The notes below the pieces were generated by a model. The model made no database searches. It saw only the letters and a program-made list of their open reading frames with translations, and had not been told where the DNA came from. A stretch of DNA of 64,000 nucleotides from Elusimicrobiota bacterium (GTDB lineage: Bacteria; Elusimicrobiota; Elusimicrobia; UBA1565; UBA9628), in assembly GCA_036676805.1 (NCBI GenBank), contig JAKFCD010000074.1, forward strand, positions 40,072-104,071, written 5' to 3'. Position 1 is the first letter of the stretch; each line of letters starts with the position of its first letter. Below, one piece after another: positions 9,519 to 53,170 of the stretch. The position numbers and the translations under genes were made by a program.

Positions 9519-9980
9519 TTATTTCGCGGTTTGGCGGGCTTTGCGGCGGGCTTCGGCGGCCGCCCAACGCTTCTTCTCGTCCGGCGTTTCCACGAGAAGA
9601 GGCGGGATGGGGGCGGGGCGGCCGTGCTCGTCCACGGCGACCATGGTGACGAGGCAGGTGTTGGTGTGGACCCGGCTGCCGCCGGGCATGTCCTCGGCGT
9701 AGACCTCGACGCCGATCTCCATCGAACTGCGGCCGGTGTGGTTGACCTGGGCCTTGGCGATCAGGAAGGTGCCCACGTGGATGGGGACCAGGAACTCGAC
9801 GCGCTCCATGGCCACGGTCACGCAGGGTTTGCCCGAGTGGCGCATGGCGCACACCGAGGCGGCCTTGTCCACCATCTGCAGGACCTTGCCGCCGAAGACG
9901 GTGCCGTGCATGTTGGCGTCCGGGGGGAACATCAGGTCGGCGACGTCGGAGACGGAGTCGCGTGAGGGCTTAGCGGTCAT
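9519..9980 (-). CDS. acyl-CoA thioesterase (hotdog fold, YciA-like)
   Basis: 153 aa. HGTVFGGKVLQMVDKAASVCAMRHSG...VTVAMERVEFLVPIHVGTFL is typical of YciA-type thioesterases. Confidence 0.8.
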   Translation of the reverse strand: MTAKPSRDSVSDVADLMFPPDANMHGTVFGGKVLQMVDKAASVCAMRHSGKPCVTVAMERVEFLVPIHVGTFLIAKAQVNHTGRSSMEIGVEVYAEDMPGGSRVHTNTCLVTMVAVDEHGRPAPIPPLLVETPDEKKRWAAAEARRKARQTAK

Positions 9981-10754
9981 AGAGTCTCGGCCGGCGGTCC
10001 TCGAAGAGGTCGCAGGCGGGATGGACCTTCTTGTTCTTGGCCGTCCAGGCGTCGATCGTGACGACCGCCGCGGCCGGCTGCTCGGGACCGAGGCGGACGA
10101 GCAGGGTGCCGTTGGGGGAGACCATCTGGGACTGGCCGATGTAGCGCAGGCCGCGCTCGACTCCGACCCGGTTGGCCGTCGCGGAGAAGACCCGGTTCTC
10201 CAGCGAGCGGATCTTCATCCCCTCGGGCGCCCACGGGAGGACCAGGTTCGAGGGGTGGGCGATGATCTCGGCCCCCTTGAGGGCCAGGGTCCGGGCGGCC
10301 TCGGGGAAGAACCAGTCGAAGCAGACCATCACGCCGACCGACACGCCCTTGACCTTCTCGGTCCAGAAGCCCGTGTCGCCGGGCGCGAAGAACTTCTTCT
10401 CGCCGCCGAACAGGTGGGTCTTGCGGTAGACCCGGCTCTTGCCGCCCTGCGCCAGGACCGCCGAGTTGTACAGCTTCGAGCCCGCTTTCTCGGGGAAGCC
10501 CGCGACGATGGCGCAATCGCGGCTCGCGGCGTAGGCGCGCAGCAAGCCGACCAGCGGGCCGCTCGCCGTCTCGGCGCACTTCGCCGCTTCCTTCTTGTTC
10601 TTGAAGTTGTACCCGGAGGCGAAAAACTCGGGAAGCACCCAAAGGTCGGCCTCCTGCCTGTCCATCAGCTCGAAGCACGCCTTGAGGTTCTGCGGCGCCT
10701 TGAGGAACTTCGGCGAATTTTGCACGACCCCGAGTCGAAATTCCATGGCGGCCA
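9970..10754 (-). CDS. carbon-nitrogen hydrolase family protein (nitrilase superfamily)
   Basis: MEFRLGVVQNSPKF...VLPEFFASGYNF...RKTHLFGGEKKFFAPGD...VGVMVCFDWFFPE carries the Glu, Lys and Cys catalytic-triad context. The table ORF starts at a TTG inside the palindromic element, so I prefer the MAAMEF Met near 10754 (within about 3 nt). Confidence 0.75.
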
Positions 10755-10767
10755 TCGTATCAAAAAT

Positions 10768-10839
10768 AGGGGTCAGACCTCCCGTTGTTGCAATGCCGGG
10801 GTCTGACCCCAACAACGCAACAACGGGAGGTCTGACCCC
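10768..10839. promoter_or_regulatory. array of three 13-bp palindromes GGGGTC(A/T)GACC(C/T)C at about 30-bp spacing, with flanking inverted repeats, in a divergent promoter region
   Basis: Copy 1 ggggtcagacctc (10768-10780), copy 2 ggggtctgacccc (about 10798-10810) and copy 3 gaggtctgacccc (10827-10839). Copy 3 is the exact reverse complement of copy 1. tcccgttgttgc and gcaacaacggga form a further inverted pair. The array lies between the divergent nitrilase-family and methyltransferase genes. Confidence 0.5.
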
Positions 10840-10860
10840 TTAAATTTATAGAATCCGCGG

Positions 10861-11682
10861 GTGAGCAAGAAAGAGGCGCTGTCCTGGTGGCGGATGCACC
10901 TCGAGGACGACCCTCGGCGGCCCCACTCCCAGGTCAAGACGCAGATCGACGGCGTGGAGCGCTTCATGCGCCTGGAGCCGCGCTCGCGCGTGCTCGACCT
11001 CGGCTGCGGCTCGGGGCGGCGCACCATCGAGCTCGCCCGGCGGGGCCACCGGGTCCTCGGCGTGGACCCCGACGAGCGCGCCCTCGCCGTCGCGCGGGCC
11101 TCGGCCAAGGGCGAGAAGCTCAACGTCCACTTCATGAAGGCCGACACGCGCGCGATCCCTTACCGCGGCGAGATCGACGCCGTGGTGAGCCTCGACGGCG
11201 CCTTCGGCCAGCTGGCCAACGACCGCGACGACCTGCGCTGCCTCGAGGCCGCGCGCAAGGCGCTGAAGCCCTCCGGGCTTCTCCTGCTCGATACGCTTAA
11301 TAAGGAATGGCTCATGCGCCACTTCGAGCCTAACTACTGGGAGCAGGGCGAGGAGCGCAAGAGCTCGGTCGTGCTCGACCGGATCGGCTTCGACTTCGAG
11401 CGCGGGCGCCTGGACAACCGCCGCGTCATCGTCGACGCCGACGGCACGCGCACCCCTTCGTTCATCAGCGTGCGGGTCTACGCGCTGACCGAGCTCAAGG
11501 CCCAGCTCGAGCGCGCGGGCCTGAAGTATCTCCAGAGCTGGGGCGCCTTCGACGGCTCGGCCTACGGCATGGACAGCGCCCGGACGATCGTGCTGGCCGA
11601 GCGTCCCCCGGAGCGCTCGACGAAGCCCGCCGACCCCGACGAGCCGCCGACCGCGATCCGCATCAAGGGGCGCAAGAGGTGA
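10861..11682 (+). CDS. class I SAM-dependent methyltransferase
   Basis: 273 aa with a GTG start. It carries the VLDLGCGSGRRTIELARRGHRVLGVDPDERAL motif I. Its stop overlaps the next gene (GTGA). Confidence 0.85.
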   Translation: MSKKEALSWWRMHLEDDPRRPHSQVKTQIDGVERFMRLEPRSRVLDLGCGSGRRTIELARRGHRVLGVDPDERALAVARASAKGEKLNVHFMKADTRAIPYRGEIDAVVSLDGAFGQLANDRDDLRCLEAARKALKPSGLLLLDTLNKEWLMRHFEPNYWEQGEERKSSVVLDRIGFDFERGRLDNRRVIVDADGTRTPSFISVRVYALTELKAQLERAGLKYLQSWGAFDGSAYGMDSARTIVLAERPPERSTKPADPDEPPTAIRIKGRKR

Positions 11683-19313: not shown

Positions 19314-19544
19314 TCAGGACGGGCAGCCGCCGCCGCCGCAAGGGCCGCGGCGTCCGCAGGGAGGGCTCGAGGGGGCGCTTTTTCCTTTAGAGGACACCTT
19401 GGGCACGCGGTCGCTGACGCGGACGATCTCGCCGCTCTGTTTATCGTAGCGGTAGGTGCCGGTCGCGGCTTCGTCGGCCGGGGCTTTGCGGGAACGCTTC
19501 GCGGGCTTGGTCGGCATGTTTTTGATTATACCTCGTATTCTCAT
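19314..19544 (-). CDS. small basic protein with a Cys/Gly-rich tail (hypothetical)
   Basis: 76 aa: MRIRGIIKNMPTKPAKRSRK...CGRRGPCGGGGCPS. GC3 is high. Its ATG overlaps the TGA of the GT39 gene (ATGA) and its stop is 6 nt before the aminopeptidase start. Confidence 0.4.
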   Translation of the reverse strand: MRIRGIIKNMPTKPAKRSRKAPADEAATGTYRYDKQSGEIVRVSDRVPKVSSKGKSAPSSPPCGRRGPCGGGGCPS

Positions 19545-21052
19545 CTTCGTTTCGCCCCTTCGGTTGGGCTCTTCGCGCCCAATGAGGTCCCGGCGAGCAG
19601 CGCGGCGACCTGCTCCCCCGTAGCGATCGACACCGCCGGGCCGCCGAGCCAGCGCTTTTCATCGAGCACGACGCAGGGGCCCAGCCGCCGCAGGCGAGCG
19701 CGCTCCAGCACCCCGTTATAGAGGGGCAGGCCGGGATAGTCGACGCCTTCGGCCGCCTCCGCGACGAGAAAGTGCGGGCGCTCGGGCAGATAGTAGCCCC
19801 GCATCGGCAGGTAGTAATAGGTGTCGAGATAGACGAGGGGAAGGCGCCGGTCGGTGCGGCGGATCGAATCGGCCAGGCCGCCCAGCCGGGGATCGACGAC
19901 GAGCCCCGAGATGAAATAGCCGACGGCTCCGGCAAGAACGAGCGCCCCGAGCGTCCGGCGCGCGGCCGAAGCGGCCCGGCCGCGCCGCGAGATCTCGAGC
20001 GCCGCGAGCAGGTAGAGGATCGGGGCGATCGGCGCGAAGTAGCGGGCCTGCGTCACGGGGCGCCCTAAGAAGAGCTCCGCCGCGGCGGTCAGGGCGACGA
20101 AGACGGCCGCGTGCCAGAGCAGAAAGTCGAGCGCGCGAAGCTCCGGCTCGTCGTCCTCGCGCCGGACGAGGCGAGCCGCGGCCAGGGCGGCCAGGGCCAA
20201 AACGAACGCTCCGATCGCGGGCACGAGCCAGGAGGGCAGGAGCAGGCCGAGGTAGGTGACGTCGAAGAACAGGGTTCCCAGCAAGCCGCATAAATGGCGA
20301 AAGGTGAGCGGGTCGCCGACGGCCAGGTCGCCTCGGTGCATGCCGAACTGCGCCATGAAGGATCCGAGCCAGGGCAGGAAGGCCGCCGCGACGCAGGCGT
20401 GCGCCGCGAGCCAGGCGCCCAGCTCCGGCGGCGAGCGCCGCCAGCGGCGCAGCAGCCAGGCCGCGTGGGCGGCGAGGATCAGCGCGAAATAATAATGAGC
20501 GTAGAGCCCGAGGACGGCGAGCGCGGCGTACCCCGCCCACAGCCGTCCCGTCGGGCGCCGCGCGAGCTCCCACGTCAGGAGCGCCTCGCACACGACGATC
20601 AGCGAGAGCAGGGCGTAGACGCGTCCGTCCTGCGAGAAGTGCAGCCAGTAGGACGACGCGGCCGCGAGGGCCAGGGCGATAAGGCGCGCGCGCTCGGGCA
20701 GCAGGCGCCCGGCCAGGCTCCAGAACGCGGCGAGAGCCCCGATCCCGCAGGCCGCGGAGAAGACGCGCAGGCCGATGCGCGGATCGGCGAAGAACGGAAG
20801 CCAGGCGTGCATCAGGAGGGAATACAGGGGCGGGCTGACCTCGAAGCGCAGGAGAAACGAGTGCAGGAGCGGCAGCGGCCGGCTCGCGACGAGCAGGCTG
20901 AGGGCCTCGTCGAACCACAAGGACCGGCTTCCGAGGAACGAGAGGCGCAGGGCGGCGCCGATGACGAGCGCGGCCATCGCCGGGGTGGCGCGAACGCGAA
21001 GGGCGCGGTCGAGGAGGGAGGGGGCGCCGGCGTTCGGCGGGACAGAACTCAC
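19541..21052 (-). CDS. glycosyltransferase family 39 (PMT/ArnT-like, GT-C fold) membrane protein
   Basis: 503 aa with a GTG start and about 11 TM helices. SLWFDEALSLLVA...YSLLMHAW is the typical GT39/ArnT N-terminal loop, including the DE motif. Confidence 0.8.
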   Translation of the reverse strand: MSSVPPNAGAPSLLDRALRVRATPAMAALVIGAALRLSFLGSRSLWFDEALSLLVASRPLPLLHSFLLRFEVSPPLYSLLMHAWLPFFADPRIGLRVFSAACGIGALAAFWSLAGRLLPERARLIALALAAASSYWLHFSQDGRVYALLSLIVVCEALLTWELARRPTGRLWAGYAALAVLGLYAHYYFALILAAHAAWLLRRWRRSPPELGAWLAAHACVAAAFLPWLGSFMAQFGMHRGDLAVGDPLTFRHLCGLLGTLFFDVTYLGLLLPSWLVPAIGAFVLALAALAAARLVRREDDEPELRALDFLLWHAAVFVALTAAAELFLGRPVTQARYFAPIAPILYLLAALEISRRGRAASAARRTLGALVLAGAVGYFISGLVVDPRLGGLADSIRRTDRRLPLVYLDTYYYLPMRGYYLPERPHFLVAEAAEGVDYPGLPLYNGVLERARLRRLGPCVVLDEKRWLGGPAVSIATGEQVAALLAGTSLGAKSPTEGAKRR

Positions 21053-21053
21053 G

Positions 21054-22421
21054 GTGGGATTATGTCAAAATACCGTCGTGAGGCTCTCCGTCGTCATTCC
21101 CGCCTATAACGAGGAGGACCGCCTCCCCGCGACCTTGGAGAGGGTTCGGCGCCGCGTCGGCGCCTCGGGCTGCGAGATCATCGTCGTCGACGACGGCAGC
21201 CTCGACCGGACCGCCGCCGTGGCCGAGAGCATGGGCGCTTCGGTGCTGCGGCTTGGGAAGAACGGCGGACGCGGCGCGGCCGTCCGGGCGGGGGTCGGGG
21301 CCGCGCGCGGCGAGCTCGTCCTGGAGATGGACGCCGACGGCAGCGTGGACGCGGAAGCCATCACCCGCTTCGCCGAGTATTTCGAGCGGCATCCGGGCGT
21401 GGACGTGCTCATCGGCAGCCGCAACGCCCGCGGCTCCGTCGTCGTCGTGCCGCAGCCTTTTTTGCGCGTTTTCCTGGGCGGCTGCTTCCTTCTCGCCGCC
21501 AAGGCACTCTTCGGCTGGGACGTCACGGACTACACGCTCGGCTTCAAGATGTTCCGCAAGGAGGCGGCCGGCGACGTCATGCGCCATCAGTTCGACGCGG
21601 GATTCCTCGCCGAGGCCGAGCTCGTGGTGGCGGCTCGGGGCCGCGGGTGGCGCACCCAGGAGCTGCCCGTGCGCTGGGCCGAGCACGGCAACTCGAAGGT
21701 CCGGCCTTGGCGGGAGTCGTGGCGCTCGCTGCGGGGCCTGGCCGCCCTCGTCGCCCGCTCGCTGCGCGGCGCCTACGATCCGGACCCGGGCGGGCAGTCC
21801 TTCTCGGCCGCCAAGCGGCGGACGACGGGGCTATATCGCGGCCTCGGGTGGCCGTCGCTGTTCGCCCGGATCCGCTTCTTCACGGCGCCGTACGGCGGGC
21901 TCGAGCCGCACGTGCCGCGCGAGGGCCTCATCGTCGATCTCGGCTGCGGGTATGGGACGTTCTCGAATCTATTGGGGCTCATGGGGCCGGGCCGGCGCGT
22001 CGTGGGCCTCGACCTCGACGAGGCGAAGCTCAGGCACGCGCCGCGCGGCCTCGGCAACGTGACCTTCCTCGGCGGCGACATCCGGACGGCCGTGACCGAG
22101 CCGGCCGACGCCATTCTGCTGATCCACGTGCTCCATCACCTGGGCTCCTACGAGGAGCAGGAGCCGCTCCTCGCCTCCTGCCGTCAAAAGCTGAAGCCGG
22201 GAGGGCGCCTCGTCGTCTGCGAGGTCGACCGGCGGCCCTACGCCAAGTACCTGCTCGGCCTGCTCGCCGACACCTTGCTCTATCCCGGCGACGACATCTT
22301 CTACCGCTTCCCCGGCGAGCTCGCGCCGATCATCGAGAGCTGCGGCTTCCGGGTCGACACGATGCGCAGCGACGCGGGAACGCCTTTCGCCCACGTCACC
22401 TACGTCGCCGTCAAGCGCTAG
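21054..22421 (+). CDS. fusion protein: GT2 polyprenol-phosphate glycosyltransferase (Ppm1/DPM1-like) domain plus C-terminal class I SAM methyltransferase domain
   Basis: LSVVIPAYNEEDRLPATL...VVDDGSLDRT...EMDADGS is GT2. IVDLGCGYGTFS...LKPGGRLVV is the MT domain. The start is GTG 21054 (or GTG 21078), 1 bp from the divergent GT39 start. The table ORF start 20775 is rejected because it overlaps the GT39 gene. Confidence 0.75.
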   Translation: MGLCQNTVVRLSVVIPAYNEEDRLPATLERVRRRVGASGCEIIVVDDGSLDRTAAVAESMGASVLRLGKNGGRGAAVRAGVGAARGELVLEMDADGSVDAEAITRFAEYFERHPGVDVLIGSRNARGSVVVVPQPFLRVFLGGCFLLAAKALFGWDVTDYTLGFKMFRKEAAGDVMRHQFDAGFLAEAELVVAARGRGWRTQELPVRWAEHGNSKVRPWRESWRSLRGLAALVARSLRGAYDPDPGGQSFSAAKRRTTGLYRGLGWPSLFARIRFFTAPYGGLEPHVPREGLIVDLGCGYGTFSNLLGLMGPGRRVVGLDLDEAKLRHAPRGLGNVTFLGGDIRTAVTEPADAILLIHVLHHLGSYEEQEPLLASCRQKLKPGGRLVVCEVDRRPYAKYLLGLLADTLLYPGDDIFYRFPGELAPIIESCGFRVDTMRSDAGTPFAHVTYVAVKR

Positions 22422-36696: not shown

Positions 36697-38166
36697 TCAG
36701 CGGCCGAGCGGGAAGATCACGAGCTTGCCGTCGTCCCAGACCGGGGCGCCTTGGGCGCGAAGCCGCTTCCACATCTTGCCGTCGGGCTCGGCGAACATCC
36801 CGCGCTTCTCCGAGGCGATGAAGCGCGCGCCCTTGGCGGCATGCTCGTCAAGGAAATCCTGGACGGCGCCCACCGGCTGCGGGTCGAGCTCGCCCGACCA
36901 GCCGCGCCGGCCGAGATAGTACAGCAGGACCGACGGGGCGGGGCAGTTGGTCAGGAACAGGTCGCCCGGGGCGCTGACCGCCGCGGCGGCCCTGCCGGCG
37001 CCCTCGACGTAATCGTAGCCTTGACGGTACCAATGGCTGATGCGCAGGGCCGAGTGGGCGGGAACCGCGACGATCAGCAAGGCCAGGCCCGCGAACGCGA
37101 GGGCGCGGTATTTTTGAGGGGCGGCGGCTGCCTTCTCGCGCAGGGCCGCGACGCCGACGCCGATCAGGCCCGCCGCGACGGGCGCCAGCGGAAGCGCCGT
37201 GTACTCATGGGAGTGGGAATAGCCCGCCATCGCGAAAAGATGCGCGATCACGCCGAAGAACCAGGAAAGCCAGAACGCGTCTCGCTTATCCCATAAGACT
37301 CGGCGCGCCCCTACGGCCAGGAACGCGAGGCCCGCATAGGTCAGGACGACCTCGGGTATGCGGCTGAAGAGCTGGAACTGGATGAAGTACGGAAGGCGGG
37401 CATAGTCGAGCAGCGAGGAGTATTCCCCGGCGCGCGTCGGCACGACGTAGACGCCTTGGCGGGCGTGAAGGTACCAGGCGATGACGCCGCCCATCGCCGC
37501 GAGGCCGGCGGCGTGCATGCGCCAGTCCATCAGGGCCCCGCGTCCGAGCTTGCGCCAGGTCAAGCCCGCCAGCGGGATGAGGAGGTGGGCGTAGGGAAGC
37601 TTGAGCCCGACCGCGATGAACGCGCAGAACGCCGCGCCCGCCCACGCGCTCCAGGGGCGATCCGGCTCGAGGTGCCGGCTCCAGAAGCCGAGAGAGGCGA
37701 CCAGCGCGAGGAGCGCGGTCGCCTCGGGCTGAACGGTGCGGCCGAAGTAGACCTCGACGGGAAGGAGCGAGAAGATCGAGGCGCCCCAAAGCGCGGCCTC
37801 GCGCCCGAATTCCCTCTCGAAGAGGCCGAAGAGGAGCAGCGCCGTGAGCAAGGAGGCGGCCACGGAGAGCAGGCGCCCCCATTTCTCGCCGAGCCCCGCA
37901 AGGGGCCACAGCTTTCCGTACAGCCACATGTAGACCGGCAGTTCCGTCGCGGCGAGCCGGTCGGAGGGTCCGTCCCAGTCGATGCGGGGCTGATGGATCG
38001 GGCGGCCCCCTTGGTGATAGCCGCGCGCGATCGAGGCGGTGTTGACCTGGCGGTGGAAGTGGTAGTCGAGCAGCGGCGCGGTGAGGCCTTTCGCGTGGAC
38101 GAGGAGGGAGAAGAAGGCGACGACGGCCAGGCATAGGCCGCGGCGCTCGAGGACCGGTCCGATCAT
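36697..38166 (-). CDS. GT39/GT83 ArnT-like (GT-C) membrane glycosyltransferase
   Basis: The start MIGPVLERRGLCLAVVAFFSLLVHA overlaps the upstream stop (ATGA). ARGYHQGGRPIHQPRIDWDGP...ELPVYMW and multiple TM helices are present. The 858-aa table ORF is rejected as an alternate-frame extension over the methyltransferase gene. Confidence 0.75.
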   Translation of the reverse strand: MIGPVLERRGLCLAVVAFFSLLVHAKGLTAPLLDYHFHRQVNTASIARGYHQGGRPIHQPRIDWDGPSDRLAATELPVYMWLYGKLWPLAGLGEKWGRLLSVAASLLTALLLFGLFEREFGREAALWGASIFSLLPVEVYFGRTVQPEATALLALVASLGFWSRHLEPDRPWSAWAGAAFCAFIAVGLKLPYAHLLIPLAGLTWRKLGRGALMDWRMHAAGLAAMGGVIAWYLHARQGVYVVPTRAGEYSSLLDYARLPYFIQFQLFSRIPEVVLTYAGLAFLAVGARRVLWDKRDAFWLSWFFGVIAHLFAMAGYSHSHEYTALPLAPVAAGLIGVGVAALREKAAAAPQKYRALAFAGLALLIVAVPAHSALRISHWYRQGYDYVEGAGRAAAAVSAPGDLFLTNCPAPSVLLYYLGRRGWSGELDPQPVGAVQDFLDEHAAKGARFIASEKRGMFAEPDGKMWKRLRAQGAPVWDDGKLVIFPLGR

Positions 38167-39158
38167 TCCTTGAACGCGTACATCTCGAAAGTCCCGCCCG
38201 ACCGCAAAAGGGTCTCGAGAGCGGTCGCGACGACGACGAAGGGAACGAGGACGGGAAGCAGCAGGACGTGGGCCGCGGTCTGGAAAGGGTAGCGAAGGGC
38301 CGTGTCGGTGCGCGCCGTCGAGTTCTTGAGCAGGGAGTAGAGAAGGTTGAAGCGGAAGCCGGCGGCGTTGAAGAGGGACTGGAGCAGGCCGTAGGGGTTC
38401 TGCTCGAAGCTGAAATGGTCGAGCTGGACGACGCGGAAGCGGTGGCGCTGAAGGATCGCGTCGAGGGATTTGACGGTGAAGTGAAAATAGTGGCGGGGGG
38501 CGTCCACGTGGAACCAGCTGCCGCCGAACACGCGGGCCTGCCAGCTCCCGTAGTTCGGGACCGCGATGAAGAGGACGCCGCCGGGCTTGAGGAGCTCGTG
38601 GGCGCGCGCGACCGCGGCGACGGGATTGGCGAAGTGCTCGAGCGTGTGGCAGAAGATCACGGCGTTGTAGCGGTTCTTCTCGTGGGGGGAGGTGAGGAAA
38701 TCCCCGGTGGCCACCTCGAGCTTGAGGACGCGGCGGGCATGGTGGGCCGCGGTCTCGCTGAGCTCGAGGCCGTGGGCCTCGTAGCCGAGGTCGCGCATGT
38801 AGGAGAGCATCATGCCGCGGCCGCAGCCGACGTCGAGGACGGGCCCGCGGGGGACCCGGTTGAAGAGCACGGCGGCGCGCCGCTTTCGGAACCAGCGCAC
38901 CATGGCCTCGAAGAGCGGATTGAAGCGGACGTTTTCCTTCCCGTAGTATTGCTCGGGATACCACTTCCCGATCTCGTCGCCCGGAACCGGGGGCCAGGTT
39001 CGCCCGAAGCCGCAATCCGGGCAGGCGAGAAGCTCGAATCCCTCCTCGTTCGAAGGGGAGGCCGTCTCGGGGCCGTCGAACCCGCAGGCCGGGCAGCGCG
39101 CGGGGCGCCGGTCCTGGGAGGCGAGCTCGGGCTGAAAGCGGCTGGAGGAGGTCGTCAC
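38163..39158 (-). CDS. class I SAM-dependent methyltransferase with an N-terminal CxxC...CxxC zinc ribbon
   Basis: 331 aa with a GTG start. It has CPACGF...CPDCGF and VLDVGCGRGMM (motif I), then LKPGGVLFIAVPN. Confidence 0.85.
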   Translation of the reverse strand: MTTSSSRFQPELASQDRRPARCPACGFDGPETASPSNEEGFELLACPDCGFGRTWPPVPGDEIGKWYPEQYYGKENVRFNPLFEAMVRWFRKRRAAVLFNRVPRGPVLDVGCGRGMMLSYMRDLGYEAHGLELSETAAHHARRVLKLEVATGDFLTSPHEKNRYNAVIFCHTLEHFANPVAAVARAHELLKPGGVLFIAVPNYGSWQARVFGGSWFHVDAPRHYFHFTVKSLDAILQRHRFRVVQLDHFSFEQNPYGLLQSLFNAAGFRFNLLYSLLKNSTARTDTALRYPFQTAAHVLLLPVLVPFVVVATALETLLRSGGTFEMYAFKE

Positions 39159-39184
39159 GAGCGAAAATTATATAAAATTCGGCC

Positions 39185-40216
39185 ATGCAGAGACTCCTGG
39201 CCGTGGTCCTCGCGCTGTCCGCCGGCTCGATGACCGCCCACGGCCTTTTGCCCGACGAAGAGAACACGATCAAGGTGTTTAAATCCGCTTCGTCCTCGGT
39301 CGTCTACGTAACCAACGTCGCTATCACCCATAACCTCAACATGGACGAGCATGCCATCCCCCAGGGGACCGGCTCGGGCTATGTTTGGGACCGCCAGGGC
39401 CACATCGTCACCAATTTTCACGTCGTGCAGGGCGGCCACGCGTTTCTCGTGACGCTCGGCGATCAGACCCAGCTCGAGGCGCGGCTGATCGGCTCCGACC
39501 CGACGAAGGACATCGCCGTGCTCAAGGTCGAGAAAAGCCACGAGAAGCTCGTCCCCGTGCGCATGGCCAAGTTCGAGACCCTGCAGGTCGGCCAGAAGAC
39601 GATCGCGATCGGCAATCCGTTCGGCCTGGACCATACCCTGACGACGGGCGTGATCTCCGCGCTCGGCCGCGAGGTCCAGGGCGTCAGCGGCATCACGATC
39701 CGCGACATGATCCAGACCGACGCGGCGATCAACCCGGGGAACTCCGGCGGCCCCCTGCTCGATTCGGACGGGAACCTCATCGGGATGAACACGATGATCT
39801 TCAGCCGCTCGGGCGGCAGCTCGGGCATCGGCTTCGCCGTGCCGGTGTCGTTCATCGCCCGCATCGTCCCCGAGCTGATCAAGTTCGGCAAGGTCGTGCG
39901 GCCGGGGATGGGCATCACCATCCTGAGCACGGGGCAGAAGTACTACCTCATCGGCGACCGGCCCGGCGTCGTCGTCAACGAGGTCGCTCCCGGCGGGCCC
40001 GCCGCGAAGGCCGGGCTGCGCGGGCTGCGGCGCTTCCGGGGCGGGCGCGTGGCGCCCGGCGACATCATCGTCGGCGTCGAGTCCTTCGTCGTGCGCGACT
40101 TCGACGACCTCTACAACGCCCTCGACCGCTTCAAGCCGGGCGACACGGTGACCGTGAAGATCGAGCGGAGCGGCAAGCCGATGTCCTTGTCCGTGAAGCT
40201 CGTCAACATCCACTAG
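39185..40216 (+). CDS. HtrA/DegP-family serine protease (trypsin-like S1C plus PDZ domain)
   Basis: 343 aa with a signal peptide. The catalytic triad context is HIVTNFHVV, DIAVLKV and GNSGGPLL. A C-terminal PDZ domain is present. Confidence 0.9.
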   Translation: MQRLLAVVLALSAGSMTAHGLLPDEENTIKVFKSASSSVVYVTNVAITHNLNMDEHAIPQGTGSGYVWDRQGHIVTNFHVVQGGHAFLVTLGDQTQLEARLIGSDPTKDIAVLKVEKSHEKLVPVRMAKFETLQVGQKTIAIGNPFGLDHTLTTGVISALGREVQGVSGITIRDMIQTDAAINPGNSGGPLLDSDGNLIGMNTMIFSRSGGSSGIGFAVPVSFIARIVPELIKFGKVVRPGMGITILSTGQKYYLIGDRPGVVVNEVAPGGPAAKAGLRGLRRFRGGRVAPGDIIVGVESFVVRDFDDLYNALDRFKPGDTVTVKIERSGKPMSLSVKLVNIH

Positions 40217-41693: not shown

Positions 41694-42773
41694 ATGCCGA
41701 TCCTGCCGCGCTACGTCCTGCGCCAGTTCCTGCCGGTTTTCGCGGCCAGCCTCGCCCTGTTCCTGGGCGTGCTGCTGATGAACCAGTTCCTGCGGCTGTT
41801 CTCGCTGGCGATGATGAAGGGCATCCCGGTCTGGTGGATCCTCAGCTGCTTCGCCCGGCTGCTCCCCTCGCTGGCCGCCCTGGCCGTGCCGATGTCCTTC
41901 CTCGTGGCGGCGATGATCGTCCTGGGTCAGCTCGCCGACAGCGGCGAGGTGATGGCCCTGCGCGCCAGCGGCTTCTCGTATCGCGAGATCACCCGGCCCC
42001 TGCTCTGGGCGGCCATCGTCCTGTCGGCGTCCCTGCTCGTCATCAATCACAAGCTGGGGCCCGAGGGGTTCCATTCCTTCAAGAAACGCACGAGCGAGGC
42101 GGCGCAGAAGGTGGCGCGCGTGGATCTGCGTTCCCGCTCCTTCACCACGCTCGGGCCGTGGCGCCTCTACGCGCGCGGCGCGGACGCCAAGACGGGCGCG
42201 CTCGAGGGGGTCTACCTCGTCAAGCCGGGCCAGTCGTCCGGCATGCGCATCAACGCCGAGAAGGGACGGCTCTCCTCGGACCCCGGCAAGGGCATCATGC
42301 TCGAGCTGCTCGACGGCCAGCTCCAGCTGCCGAGCCGCCAGCCGGAGCGGTTCACCTCCGGCCGCTTCGAGCGCTACAGCGTGTTCGTGCCGCTGACCGC
42401 CGCCGCGGAGCCGCGCGAGCTCACCATGCAGGAGATGAACACCTCTCTTCTGCGCGCGAAGGCCGCCGACCCGGCGACGCCGGCCGACCGGCGCCTGGAG
42501 TACCGCGTCGAGGCGGCCGTGCGGACGGTCGGCGCGCTTTCGCCGTTCGTCTTCTTCTGGGTCGGCGTCCCGCTCGGCATGGCCAAGCGCCGCACGCGCG
42601 GCGCGGACCTCGCCGCCAGCCTCGGCGTCATGTTCGTCTTCTACGGCCTGCTCGTCGTGGGGATCAGCCTGGGCCGCCGCCACGAGGCTCTGGCCTCGTT
42701 CGCCCCGTGGCTGTGCAACGCCGCGGGCCTGCTCGCCGGCGCCGTCCTGACCCGCAGGGCGGCGGCCCAGTGA
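41694..42773 (+). CDS. lptF: LPS export ABC transporter permease LptF (YjgP/YjgQ family)
   Basis: 359 aa. PILPRYVLRQFLPVFAASLALFLGVLLMNQ is followed by 6 TM helices and a periplasmic beta-jellyroll insert. Confidence 0.85.
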   Translation: MPILPRYVLRQFLPVFAASLALFLGVLLMNQFLRLFSLAMMKGIPVWWILSCFARLLPSLAALAVPMSFLVAAMIVLGQLADSGEVMALRASGFSYREITRPLLWAAIVLSASLLVINHKLGPEGFHSFKKRTSEAAQKVARVDLRSRSFTTLGPWRLYARGADAKTGALEGVYLVKPGQSSGMRINAEKGRLSSDPGKGIMLELLDGQLQLPSRQPERFTSGRFERYSVFVPLTAAAEPRELTMQEMNTSLLRAKAADPATPADRRLEYRVEAAVRTVGALSPFVFFWVGVPLGMAKRRTRGADLAASLGVMFVFYGLLVVGISLGRRHEALASFAPWLCNAAGLLAGAVLTRRAAAQ

Positions 42774-43843
42774 CGATTTACACGCGCTACATGGTCGGCC
42801 GCTTCGTGAGGCCCTTCGCCTTCGGCCTAGGCCTGTTCGCCGTGCTCATATTCCTCGGCGACACCTTCGACAAGATGAACCCGATCATGCGCTCCCGCGC
42901 CCCGCTGCTGACCATACTCGAGTGCCTTTGGCTCGAGGTCCCCTACTGGGCCGGGCGCGTGATCCCGATGGCGACCTTGCTCGCGACGCTCGTGGCGATC
43001 GGCGGCTTCGTGCAGAGCGGCGAGTGGCTCGCGTCCCAGTCCTGCGGCATCGAGACGAAGCGCTTCTGGCTGCCGGTGCTGGGCTGCGCCCTGGGCGTGT
43101 CGGTGCTGGCCTTCGTCGCGCAGGAGACCGTCATGCCGGCGGCCTGGGCCCGCTCCCGGCGGCTGTGGCGCGAGAAGGTGCACCCCGAATGGGAGTGGAC
43201 CAAGTACCAGAACGTCGCTTTGCTCGGCGGCGAGGACCAGTTCGTGCAGGCCTGGCTGTTCCTGCCCAAGGAGGGCAAGCTAGAGCGGCCGATCCTCGAG
43301 ACGATGGGCGCCCGCGGCGTGACGCGCCAGCTGGACGCGAGAAACGCGTTCTGGGACCCGGCCCGTTCCCGCTGGGTCTTTCACGACGGCGTCGAGCGCG
43401 TGTTCGGCGAGAAAGGCGTCGTGGAGAAGCCCTTCGAGAGCAAGGTGTCGGACCTGGACGCCCCGCCGTTGAGCCTCGTGCCGCGCGCGATGAGCCCCGA
43501 CGAGATGACGATCCGCGAGGCGCTCGTCTACGCCCGGCGCGTCGGCCGCTTCGGCGGCTCCCCGCGCGAGTACGAGGTCGCGGCGATGGCGAAGATCGCC
43601 TACCCGTTCACGAACCTGATCATCTGCGCGCTAGGCATCCCGATCGCGCTGCGCCTGCGAAAGTTTTCCCGCGTCCTGAGCTTTTGCGCGGCGCTGGGGC
43701 TTTCCTTCATCTTCCTCTGGATGATGGAGATCGGGCGCACCCTCGGCGTGAGCGGCGTGCTGCCGCCGTTCGCCTCGGCGTGGATGGCCAACGCCCTCTT
43801 CGGCTCGCTCGCCCTGTTCCTGATCCGGCGCTGGGATCTTTAA
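42770..43843 (+). CDS. lptG: LPS export ABC transporter permease LptG (YjgP/YjgQ family)
   Basis: The GTG start overlaps the lptF stop (GTGA). It begins TIYTRYMVGRFVRPFAFGLGLFAVLIFLGD. The ATG at 42788 is an alternative start. Confidence 0.8.
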   Translation: MTIYTRYMVGRFVRPFAFGLGLFAVLIFLGDTFDKMNPIMRSRAPLLTILECLWLEVPYWAGRVIPMATLLATLVAIGGFVQSGEWLASQSCGIETKRFWLPVLGCALGVSVLAFVAQETVMPAAWARSRRLWREKVHPEWEWTKYQNVALLGGEDQFVQAWLFLPKEGKLERPILETMGARGVTRQLDARNAFWDPARSRWVFHDGVERVFGEKGVVEKPFESKVSDLDAPPLSLVPRAMSPDEMTIREALVYARRVGRFGGSPREYEVAAMAKIAYPFTNLIICALGIPIALRLRKFSRVLSFCAALGLSFIFLWMMEIGRTLGVSGVLPPFASAWMANALFGSLALFLIRRWDL

Positions 43844-53077: not shown

Positions 53078-53097
53078 CCCGCGTCGGGCCGTCGATT

Positions 53098-53170
53098 GCG
53101 CTCGTAACACAAAGGATAGTGTCCCGCCCTGCGAAGGCGGGTATCCAGGTTCGATTCCTGGCGAGCGCAA
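53098..53170 (+). tRNA. tRNA-Arg, anticodon read as GCG (CCA not encoded)
   Basis: Hand-folded cloverleaf. Acceptor GCGCTCG/CGAGCGC, 7 of 7 pairs. D-stem ACAC/GTGT with G18G19 and A20. Anticodon stem CCGCC/GGCGG with loop CTGCGAA (U33, GCG, A37). T-arm CCAGG-TTCGATT-CCTGG. Discriminator A73. Confidence 0.85.

Follow-up and report, generated by a model that had tools for sequence, protein, structure and literature searches.

A divergent gene pair of an uncultured Elusimicrobiota bacterium: a probable module for adding a sugar, possibly methylated, to the cell surface

What might a bacterium do with a gene that fuses a GT2 glycosyltransferase to a methyltransferase (MT), placed head to head with a gene for a polytopic membrane glycosyltransferase? 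Such a pair occurs in the window, by which we mean the whole stretch of 64,000 nucleotides of Elusimicrobiota DNA that was analysed. For the minus-strand reading frame (19541-21052, 503 aa), the start that an earlier note on this DNA gave, GTG 21052, is supported, and this codon aligns with an ATG in four relatives (L003, L007, L009 and L010). In the plus orientation, GT2 and MT follow one another in a single unbroken frame that ends at 22421. The earlier note preferred GTG 21054 as the start of this frame, a single base from the minus-strand start, and kept a longer start at 21078 as the alternative. The codon at 21054 does exist in frame at that distance, but it is not a real start, as it has no start-codon counterpart in the closest relatives (84-87% identity) when aligned. 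An alignment of five related loci finds GTG 21078 invariant; an identical public protein (P0001) is called at 447 aa, which corresponds to the 21078 start, and homologues of the fusion are 440-462 aa long. It is thus the longer form that holds. Also rejected was an internal ATG at 20977, chosen for the minus-strand gene by a gene caller on identical contigs, a position occupied by Ala in relatives. With the plus start at 21078 and the minus start at 21052, the two genes are therefore separated by a 25-bp spacer, not by one base. The features of the locus are as follows.

19314-19517, minus strand: short ORF of 67 aa, counted from its second Met (conserved in L007 and L009)
19541-21052, minus strand: predicted GT-C-fold polytopic glycosyltransferase, 503 aa (PMT_2 match, AF2 model, aligned start)
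21053-21077, no strand: divergent spacer, 25 bp (five-locus alignment and relatives' gene calls)
21059-21067, minus strand: extended -10-like box TGaCATAAT, 6 nt before GTG 21052 (pattern search)
21063-21071, plus strand: extended -10-like box TGtCAAAAT, 6 nt before GTG 21078 (pattern search)
21078-22421, plus strand: GT2-methyltransferase fusion gene, 447 aa, start GTG 21078 (P0001, invariant GTG, AF2)
21078-21779, plus strand: GT2 domain of predicted polyprenyl-phosphate sugar synthase type, residues 1-234 (PDB sequence and fold matches, invariant residues)
21795-22418, plus strand: class I SAM-dependent methyltransferase domain, residues ~240-447 (Pfam, invariant columns, fold)

The pair is flanked by genes for an M1 peptidase, the 67-aa ORF and a VIT-VWA protein, and no polysaccharide assembly genes were found near it in the window or in close relatives. 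The 67-aa ORF is basic, carries a C-terminal Cys motif, lies 23 nt past the stop of the polytopic glycosyltransferase gene, and is 75-76% identical and unchanged in position in L007 and L009. It has no Pfam match. It may be co-transcribed with its upstream neighbour, and its membership in any functional module is uncertain.

The 25-bp gap recurs in the gene calls of L007, L008 and L009, and the closest relatives share without change an 18-nt core of the spacer, GGATTATGTCAAAATACC. Within the spacer, the two -10-like boxes overlap as mirror images, forming an imperfect palindrome. The pattern TGNNANAATN6RTG has only two matches in 64 kb, both at this locus, versus 0.16 expected. Both boxes begin with C, not T; no two-hexamer sigma-70 site was detected in 20600-21500, and no -35 element was found. 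A -10-like box 6-7 nt before the start is an enriched geometry at other gene starts window-wide, TANNNT occurring at this distance upstream of 7 of 40 longest-ORF starts versus 0.56% of all start-like triplets (p ~9e-9). In E. coli, GTG works only weakly as a leaderless start, though mycobacteria use it as one. The 65-67% clade has a different spacer sequence, and there the alignment shows no obvious leaderless spacing for the plus gene. These patterns suggest a mini-promoter common to both genes that would give divergent leaderless mRNAs, the plus-strand box being the putative promoter of the fusion gene. The earlier note had reasoned that, unless the longer start applies, both promoters must lie inside the partner's coding sequence; since both boxes are in the spacer, they need not lie wholly there, and only upstream promoter elements would overlap it. 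Taken with the 25-bp spacer, the box enrichment further suggests that this Elusimicrobiota lineage commonly uses leaderless translation. Such translation matters for gene calling, as on the identical contigs where the automated caller misplaced the GT-C start. A second divergent gene pair in the window, at 39158/39185, has a 26-bp AT-rich spacer.

The GT2 domain (PF00535, E 1.6e-30) was assigned in the earlier note to the DPM1/Ppm1 polyprenol-phosphate type, and comparisons bear this out. A PDB sequence search returns PfDPMS (5mlz) first at 1.4e-15, then ArnC and GtrB, and Foldseek places DPMS, ArnC and GtrB at ranks 1-6 and 9-12, so that the best matches by sequence and fold are all polyprenyl-phosphate glycosyltransferases. 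The top NCBIfam similarities are to PpgS and dolichyl-phosphate hexose transferase, and all NCBIfam scores of the domain lie far under the equivalog cut-offs. The AF2 model has the Rossmann-like beta/alpha core of a GT-A fold with a DxD site. In an alignment of 19 fusions, the DxD motif D85-A-D87, D39, D43 and the GSR and GFK motifs are invariant. A hydrophobic interface helix spans residues ~121-147 (Kyte-Doolittle 1.85; 128-145 in AF2) and a long juxtamembrane helix spans 210-229, both of them candidate membrane-docking helices. By hydropathy, the fusion has no TM helix and no TM segment past residue 147. C-terminal TM helices are present in GtrB, ArnC and PfDPMS and absent in some DPM1/Ppm1 forms; the fusion resembles this TM-less subtype, and its membership among polyprenyl-phosphate GT2 enzymes is still allowed. 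We therefore predict from sequence and model that the domain would catalyse NDP-sugar + polyprenyl-P -> polyprenyl-P-sugar.

The MT half matches the Pfam class I methyltransferase families PF08241, PF13649, PF08242, PF13847, PF13489, PF00891 and others, all above cut-offs, and annotation of the kind the earlier note proposed thus finds PF00535, PF08241 and PF13649 in one frame. The domain opens with a conserved amphipathic helix rich in W, F and R (GWPxLFxRIRFFTAPY). It continues through motif I (DLGxGYG, D287-L-G-x-G-Y-G293), D314, D334, HVLHH (350-354) and LYPG (401-404), which are invariant in the 19 fusions at identities down to 43%. Motif I, the acidic residue that closes beta2 and the strand order in AF2 are those of a class I enzyme, and the claim of a complete, fused methyltransferase domain stands. 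The PF00891 match (38.8 bits, cut-off 22.3) covers profile positions 65-166 only, and the protein lacks the N-terminal dimerisation/substrate domain of this family. By Foldseek the fold is nearest to small-molecule O-methyltransferases (RdmB/DnrK, RedM, ASMT), and HVLHH stands where the PF00891 catalytic His, a general base after beta4, is expected, a comparison by place only. On this modelled similarity and the putative equivalence of HVLHH, the domain is probably an O-methyltransferase. It should lie in the cytoplasm, since the fusion has no TM helix, and SAM is cytoplasmic.

Two explanations would deprive this domain of its role. That a sequencing or assembly frameshift merged two genes is scarcely credible: although GT2 and MT are separate genes in CPR relatives, the identical 447-aa protein occurs in independent assemblies, 19 independent full-length fusions from different samples and phyla are colinear through a conserved linker, and the AF2 model of the two-domain protein reaches pTM 0.88 (pLDDT 88.9). 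Very improbable, too, is a catalytically dead MT retained as a structural, oligomerisation or membrane-tethering part in place of the C-terminal TM helices of GtrB, ArnC and PfDPMS. The lack of TM helices and the amphipathic helix, a possible membrane anchor, would suit it, but the SAM-binding and further motifs stay invariant across the fusions. Stand-alone orthologous MT genes also lie beside TM-less GT2 genes, and most relatives in the GT2 clade manage with neither MT nor TM helix.

The divergent 503-aa protein matches PMT_2 (PF13231; 34.4 bits, cut-off 26.1) and has ~10-11 TM helices and a C-terminal soluble domain of ~110 aa. Its AF2 model (pLDDT 92.3) finds STT3, Pmt4, ArnT (5f15, TM 0.55), ALG9 and AftB as top Foldseek matches. 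All 29 matches with E <= 0.001 (ranks 1-29) are GT-C enzymes, as are ranks 30-37. W45, D47 and E48 are invariant across 38 homologues in the loop after TM1, which gives this polytopic protein the conserved acidic position that GT-C enzymes have in their first extracytoplasmic loop. From the model, this is a GT-C-fold membrane glycosyltransferase, PMT_2/ArnT-like, with predicted use of a lipid-linked donor. The label GT39 given in the earlier note, and by NCBI to homologues ('glycosyltransferase family 39 protein'), is not established; PMT_2 and the DE motif are present, but Pfam gives no match to PF02366 or to the MIR domains of eukaryotic GT39 members, and the fold matches are evenly spread, with similar scores, over OST (STT3), PMT (Pmt4), ArnT and ALG9.

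Whether the two genes work together can be judged from relatives. The fusion, described earlier as unusual, is rare but not unseen: a search of other genomes, as had been proposed, finds it in about 28 protein clusters from Elusimicrobiota, Patescibacteria and a Methylomonas MAG, and the name it already bears at NCBI marks it as bifunctional. There are also split forms, in which two overlapping or adjacent genes encode GT2 and MT; the GT2 of one of them (L011) aligns with fusion residues 1-234. A GT2+MT+MT architecture exists, and some loci have additional MT genes downstream. At every fusion locus examined, a gene for a polytopic membrane protein adjoins GT2-MT, and among 65 related GT2 loci, 44 have within 1.8 kb an ORF of 350 aa or more that encodes six or more TM segments. 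In the window clade, the partner of the fusion is of PMT_2 type, and in the 65-67% clade it is of GT87 type; in CPR and Methylomonas it belongs to a ~600-aa family that no Pfam model covers. In two proteins the components are joined: P0133 is a GT2+PMT_2 fusion, and P0121 (locus L019) is a triple fusion of GT2-MT with a polytopic 9-TM domain. In Elusimicrobiota and CPR bacteria the system appears modular: there are GT2+MT and GT2+MT+MT forms, and one in which a polytopic domain, possibly a GT-C, is joined to GT2-MT.

On another reading, the GT2 would be an ordinary glycan-building enzyme and the GT-C gene a chance neighbour, the two forming no functional unit. The sub-cut-off NCBIfam scores are in keeping with this, as are the many PMT_2-type GT-C homologues elsewhere in Elusimicrobiota, 50-58% identical, that adjoin no GT2; because of these, the pairing in the window clade could be recent. 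The change of partner family from clade to clade counts against the main reading given below. We nevertheless judge a chance pairing improbable, given best matches exclusively among polyprenyl-phosphate enzymes, an adjacency that recurs across phyla, the fusion proteins and the conserved head-to-head spacer. The linkage of a GT2 synthase gene to a GT-C gene is that of Gtr-like systems, and the coupling to the neighbouring GT-C enzyme envisaged in the earlier note is backed by both adjacency and fusion.

The pair is thus probably a cell-surface decoration kit for a sugar that is possibly methylated. From the observed domains, folds, catalytic motifs, starts, spacer conservation, adjacency and fusions we propose the following steps, in which the identities of sugar, methylation substrate and acceptor are ones that we infer. 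On the cytoplasmic side of the inner membrane, GT2 would charge polyprenyl (undecaprenyl) phosphate with a hexose-type sugar, which a nucleotide sugar would donate. The fused SAM-dependent MT, tethered at the membrane interface beside this product, would O-methylate the lipid-linked sugar, probably in the cytoplasm before flipping; less probably, it would act on the nucleotide sugar just before transfer. A flippase would carry the lipid-linked sugar over the membrane. A tblastn search with GtrA from the Methylomonas locus found no homologue in the window, and the flippase could be encoded outside it. The divergent GT-C enzyme would then pass the sugar to a periplasmic acceptor, which may be LPS, since LptF/G is encoded in the window, or another glycan or a protein. 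Both genes would be co-regulated through the spacer, where the extended -10 promoters, overlapping as mirror images, would each set off transcription at or beside their own GTG codon and so yield leaderless mRNAs. For this reading as a whole, an extracytoplasmic module of Gtr/Arn/Ppm-PMT type with an O-methylated lipid-linked sugar and leaderless divergent co-expression, we would put the probability slightly above even, at about 0.55. The narrower proposal is possible but more doubtful, namely that the MT premethylates a polyprenyl-P monosaccharide for the GT-C, in a system that is modular in Elusimicrobiota and CPR and expressed from a palindromic double -10 as two leaderless GTG mRNAs.

A different cytoplasmic substrate within a Gtr-like module would also accommodate the MT: a nucleotide sugar before transfer, a lipid-linked oligosaccharide whose chain the methyl group would cap and end (WsaE/WbdD-like) or a membrane lipid. 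In characterised GT/MT fusions such as WsaE, it is the sugar at the end of a growing lipid-linked glycan that is methylated (PMC2943079), the Methylomonas homologue lies in a large GT4-rich polysaccharide cluster with another FkbM/RfbT-like methyltransferase, and our choice of MT substrate is itself presumptive. We still think such a substrate unlikely, as the pair stands alone between the M1 peptidase and VIT-VWA genes in the window and close relatives, the MT is fused or adjacent to a monosaccharide-lipid synthase and not to a polymerising GT, and the triple fusion with a polytopic domain exists.

If the MT does act on the lipid-linked sugar, then besides deformylation (Arn) and epimerisation (und-P-Ribf, DPA) there is a third edit made to a donor on its lipid carrier, methylation, and O-methyl sugars on periplasmic acceptors, where SAM is unavailable, would be explained. 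It would also offer a first functional way into surface glycans in Elusimicrobiota and CPR/Patescibacteria, groups from which we know of no such structures, and a self-contained two-gene cassette might serve glycoengineering. The earlier note's methylated polyprenyl-phosphate donor is topologically reasonable. Its writer knew of no such pairing in characterised systems, and we likewise found no characterised precedent for methylation of a lipid-linked sugar donor. To our knowledge, no methylated surface sugar made via a premethylated lipid-linked donor has been characterised.

Several known systems share parts of this design. In mycobacteria and other actinobacteria, Ppm1 combines a TM-less DPM1-like GT2 with a second domain and feeds polyprenyl-P-mannose to a GT-C with a loop-1 DE motif. 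The pair resembles Ppm1 and PMT (GT39) O-mannosylation in its two-domain GT2 fusion and invariant D47-E48; however, the second domain of Ppm1 is a CN-hydrolase/Lnt-like membrane domain and not a methyltransferase, and the window GT-C lacks the PF02366 match of PMT. In the Arn pathway (ArnC/ArnD/ArnE-F/ArnT), a lipid-linked sugar is deformylated by ArnD before ArnT, a PMT_2/GT83-type GT-C, loads it onto lipid A. Here too a GT2-made sugar would be tailored on the lipid before GT-C transfer, the two proteins of the pair have ArnC and ArnT among their best structural matches, and the organism encodes LptF/G. In contrast to Arn, the proposed tailoring is methylation fused to the GT2, no ArnA/B/D/E/F genes are nearby, and identity is only ~22% to ArnC and ~13% to ArnT. 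In three-component systems, a monosaccharide is put on polyprenyl phosphate by a GT2 in the cytoplasm and passed on outside by a GT-C (PMC11127046). Like GtrA/GtrB/GtrC of Shigella and Salmonella phages and CsbB/GtcA/YfhO-type systems, the pair includes a GT2, here one that matches GtrB structures, and the Methylomonas homologue is accompanied by a GtrA gene; unlike them, the window has no GtrA, the GT2 has no TM helices and a fused MT, and the GT-C is not of GtrC type. Donor editing on the lipid has a precedent in und-P-ribofuranose, epimerised before GT-C transfer (PMC11127046), and in the mycobacterial DPR-to-DPA conversion, although there a PRPP-dependent phosphoribosyltransferase charges the lipid and the chemistry is epimerisation. 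Finally, WsaE of Geobacillus stearothermophilus (MT-GT2-GT2), whose methylated sugar ends on the surface glycan (PMC2943079), and WbdD-type terminators likewise fuse a SAM methyltransferase to glycosyltransferase domains. In WsaE, however, the domain order is reversed and the GT domains are polymer-building rhamnosyltransferases; methylation caps a finished chain that is exported by an ABC transporter with no GT-C step.

The divergent pair at the centre of this analysis consists of the following genes.

19541-21052, minus strand, glycosyltransferase gene of the GT-C type, 503 aa, GTG start at 21052
21078-22421, plus strand, fusion gene joining a GT2 glycosyltransferase to a methyltransferase (MT)

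The domain content that the earlier note had read in the plus-strand gene, GT2 plus a class I methyltransferase, is real. In Pfam, the N-terminal half matches the GT2 model PF00535 (E 1.6e-30), while the C-terminal half matches PF08241, PF13649, PF08242, PF13847, PF13489 and PF00891, each above cut-off. The two domains also occur together in 27 protein clusters besides P0001, the identical public protein. Most are 440-462 aa, with shorter forms of 429 aa (P0012) and 364 aa (P0017). Nineteen full-length fusions, 43-85 % identical, align colinearly. Invariant among them are a DxD motif (D85-A-D87), GSR and GFK in the GT2 half, an amphipathic linker helix GWPxLFxRIRFFTAPY, and, in the MT half, motif I DLGxGYG, D314, D334, HVLHH (350-354) and LYPG (401-404). 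The fusion is rare, recurrent and already auto-annotated as bifunctional. An AlphaFold model of the protein reaches pLDDT 88.9 and pTM 0.88. A single hydrophobic helix, putatively at the membrane interface, spans residues 121-147 of the protein, which lacks TM helices. The closest sequence and fold matches of the GT2 half are PfDPMS (5mlz, E 1.4e-15 by sequence), ArnC and GtrB, which all charge polyprenyl phosphate with a monosaccharide. The folds nearest to the MT half are small-molecule O-methyltransferases, such as RdmB/DnrK, RedM and ASMT.

The plus-strand open frame extends from 20775 to 22421, with in-frame GTGs at 21054 and 21078. The earlier note placed the two starts 1 bp apart (21052/21054) and offered 21078, as a longer form, only as an alternative. 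The alternative is the one that holds, as P0001 is 447 aa, corresponding to 21078, and all five loci in a DNA alignment (the window and the related loci L007, L009, L010 and L003) keep the GTG at 21078. GTG 21054 was rejected, since the 84-87 % relatives lack a start codon at that position and the protein is called at 447 aa in public data. For the GT-C gene, the gene caller used on identical Logan contigs picked ATG 20977, giving a 478-aa protein and a 100-bp gap. This start was likewise rejected, as the Met is Ala in the 75-84 % relatives, which have an ATG at the position equivalent to 21052. Gene calls there give GT-C proteins of 501 and 505 aa, again with 25 bp between the two genes. The intergenic spacer is therefore a conserved 25 bp (21053-21077), between GTG 21052 on the minus strand and GTG 21078 on the plus strand.

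The 18-nt core of this spacer, GGATTATGTCAAAATACC, is identical in L007 and L009 despite diverged flanking coding sequence. The G+C content of the window is ~70 %, and the spacer, an imperfect palindrome, stands out as the one AT-rich stretch of this region. It carries a -10-like box on each strand.

Plus strand of the spacer, TGtCAAAAT, then 6 nt, then GTG 21078
Minus strand of the spacer, TGaCATAAT, then 6 nt, then GTG 21052

The pattern TGNNANAATN6RTG has two matches in 64 kb, both in the spacer, where 0.16 are expected. A scan of 20600-21500 found no canonical -35/-10 (two-hexamer sigma-70) promoter. This arrangement is that of an extended -10 promoter with the transcript beginning at the start codon, which would make a leaderless mRNA. 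The earlier note had reasoned that both promoters must lie inside the partner's coding sequence unless the longer 21078 start applies; this would apply to upstream elements, but not to the -10-like boxes, which are in the spacer. From the sequence pattern, we infer that the puzzle is best resolved by overlapping back-to-back promoters that would give two leaderless mRNAs. Rfam and tRNA scans of the window returned no match in or near the locus; two tRNA-Arg genes lie elsewhere.

43710-43789, plus strand, tRNA-Arg, anticodon TCG
53097-53170, plus strand, tRNA-Arg, anticodon GCG, the only one of the two to reach the Rfam gathering score

Leaderless mRNAs appear to be common in the source Elusimicrobiota genome, to judge from start regions elsewhere in the window. 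TANNNT occurs 6-7 nt upstream of 7 of 40 longest-ORF starts, compared with a background of 0.56 % among start-like triplets as a whole (Fisher p ~9e-9). Examples, without a Shine-Dalgarno sequence, are:

8972, minus strand, with a full TTGACA-17-TATACT-6-GTG
10861, plus strand
16626, minus strand
39158, minus strand
39185, plus strand
41694, plus strand
48827, minus strand

Automated gene callers can misplace starts of this type. A second tight divergent pair shares the architecture of the GT2-MT/GT-C pair, with a near-palindromic 26-bp spacer (39159-39184), AAAATTATATAAAATT.

38163-39158, minus strand, class I methyltransferase gene
39185-40216, plus strand, trypsin-PDZ (HtrA-like) protease gene

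Additionally, a CN-hydrolase gene (9970-10815, minus strand) is divergent from a class I methyltransferase gene (10861-11682, plus strand) with TAGAAT 6 nt before its GTG. This pair (9970-11682) has no evident tie to the glycosylation pair.

The minus-strand protein of the glycosylation pair matches PMT_2 (PF13231) in Pfam, at 34.4 bits versus a cut-off of 26.1. Because its sequence found no match in the PDB at E <= 0.1, it was examined by fold search. An AlphaFold model built with 38 homologues as input (pLDDT 92.3) returned 29 fold matches at E <= 0.001, all of them GT-C enzymes (STT3, Pmt4, ArnT with TM 0.55, ALG9, AftB and AglB). W45, D47 and E48 are invariant in the loop after TM1, where enzymes of the GT-C superfamily have their catalytic acidic residues. 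The name GT39, used in the earlier note, agrees with the NCBI label on homologues, 'glycosyltransferase family 39', but Pfam gives no PF02366 match and PMTs do not stand out among the fold matches. The defensible label is 'GT-C, PMT_2/ArnT-like'. A conserved small basic ORF (19314-19517, minus strand; 67 aa, C-terminal end CGRRGPCGGGGCPS) follows the GT-C gene after 23 nt. It matched no family. In L007 and L009, the same position holds a 75-76 % identical counterpart, followed by a further 49-aa Cys-rich ORF.

Related loci speak for a functional pairing of the two genes. Of 65 related GT2 loci drawn from species-representative genomes, 44 have, no more than 1.8 kb away, an ORF of 350 aa or longer that encodes 6 or more TM segments; 6 of the loci carry a fused MT and 3 an adjacent one. 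In a 65-67 % clade, a GT87-type GT-C gene takes the divergent position at a gap of 23-37 bp, and the fusion gene is followed by a second MT gene. The fusion in a Methylomonas MAG neighbours GtrA, an FkbM-type MT and a 602-aa polytopic protein. CPR (Patescibacteria) genomes encode GT2 and MT in two neighbouring genes, flanked by a second MT and by one or two ~600-aa polytopic proteins without a Pfam model. Locus L011 has split GT2 and MT genes whose ends overlap. Against pairing, many 50-58 % homologues of the window's PMT_2-type GT-C stand alone, and there is no GtrA homologue within the window. A search of the window for a second MT, an FkbM-type MT or the ~600-aa family turned up nothing but a generic similarity to class I MTs at 38.4-38.9 kb. 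Polytopic proteins of ~570-650 aa without a Pfam model occur in locus L033 (3173-8983) and in L022, L030, L044, L020, L004 and L012. They probably represent an undescribed family of GT-C-like proteins and occur beside the GT2 clade in genomes of CPR, Methylomonas and Elusimicrobia UBA9628, often as two copies. No link between the PMT_2, GT87 and ~600-aa partner families emerged from all-vs-all BLAST.

Further architectures came from a search across 1.84 billion representative proteins: P0121 (1125 aa) is GT2-MT plus a 9-TM domain, the latter without significant BLAST similarity to the window's GT-C, P0133 is GT2+PMT_2, P0129 is GT2+MT+MT, and P0143 (732 aa) is YdjC+GT2+MT, YdjC-like proteins being carbohydrate deacetylases. 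The GT2 clade also occurs joined to SDR epimerase/dehydratase domains, in P0065, P0073 and P0078 (each about 606 aa). These combinations point to a general tendency to fuse sugar-tailoring enzymes to the lipid-charging GT2.

A Gtr/Arn-like module is the best-supported scheme for the pair. The GT2 domain would make a polyprenyl-P-sugar in the cytoplasm, the GT-C would transfer the sugar in the periplasm, and the simplest candidate for the MT substrate would be the product of the neighbouring GT2 domain. As SAM is found in the cytoplasm and the MT shares a polypeptide with a cytoplasmic, probably membrane-docked enzyme, any methyl on the transferred sugar would have to be added before flipping. 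The earlier note's functional hypothesis, a methylated lipid-linked donor for the GT-C, is reasonable, and comparative genomics strengthens it. The window encodes an LptF/LptG LPS export permease (41694-42773, plus strand) and the organism is therefore a diderm with LPS, a possible acceptor of the sugar.

In the literature, we found no report of methylated lipid-linked monosaccharides or of methylation at that stage, nor of a GT2-MT fusion acting on polyprenyl phosphate sugars. Tailoring on the lipid carrier before GT-C transfer does have precedents. ArnD deformylates its sugar at this point. In und-P-ribofuranose systems, the sugar is epimerised there (PMC11127046). WsaE, a characterised GT/MT fusion, works differently, in that it caps a polymer (PMC2943079), whereas the window's fusion is proposed to methylate a lipid-linked sugar.
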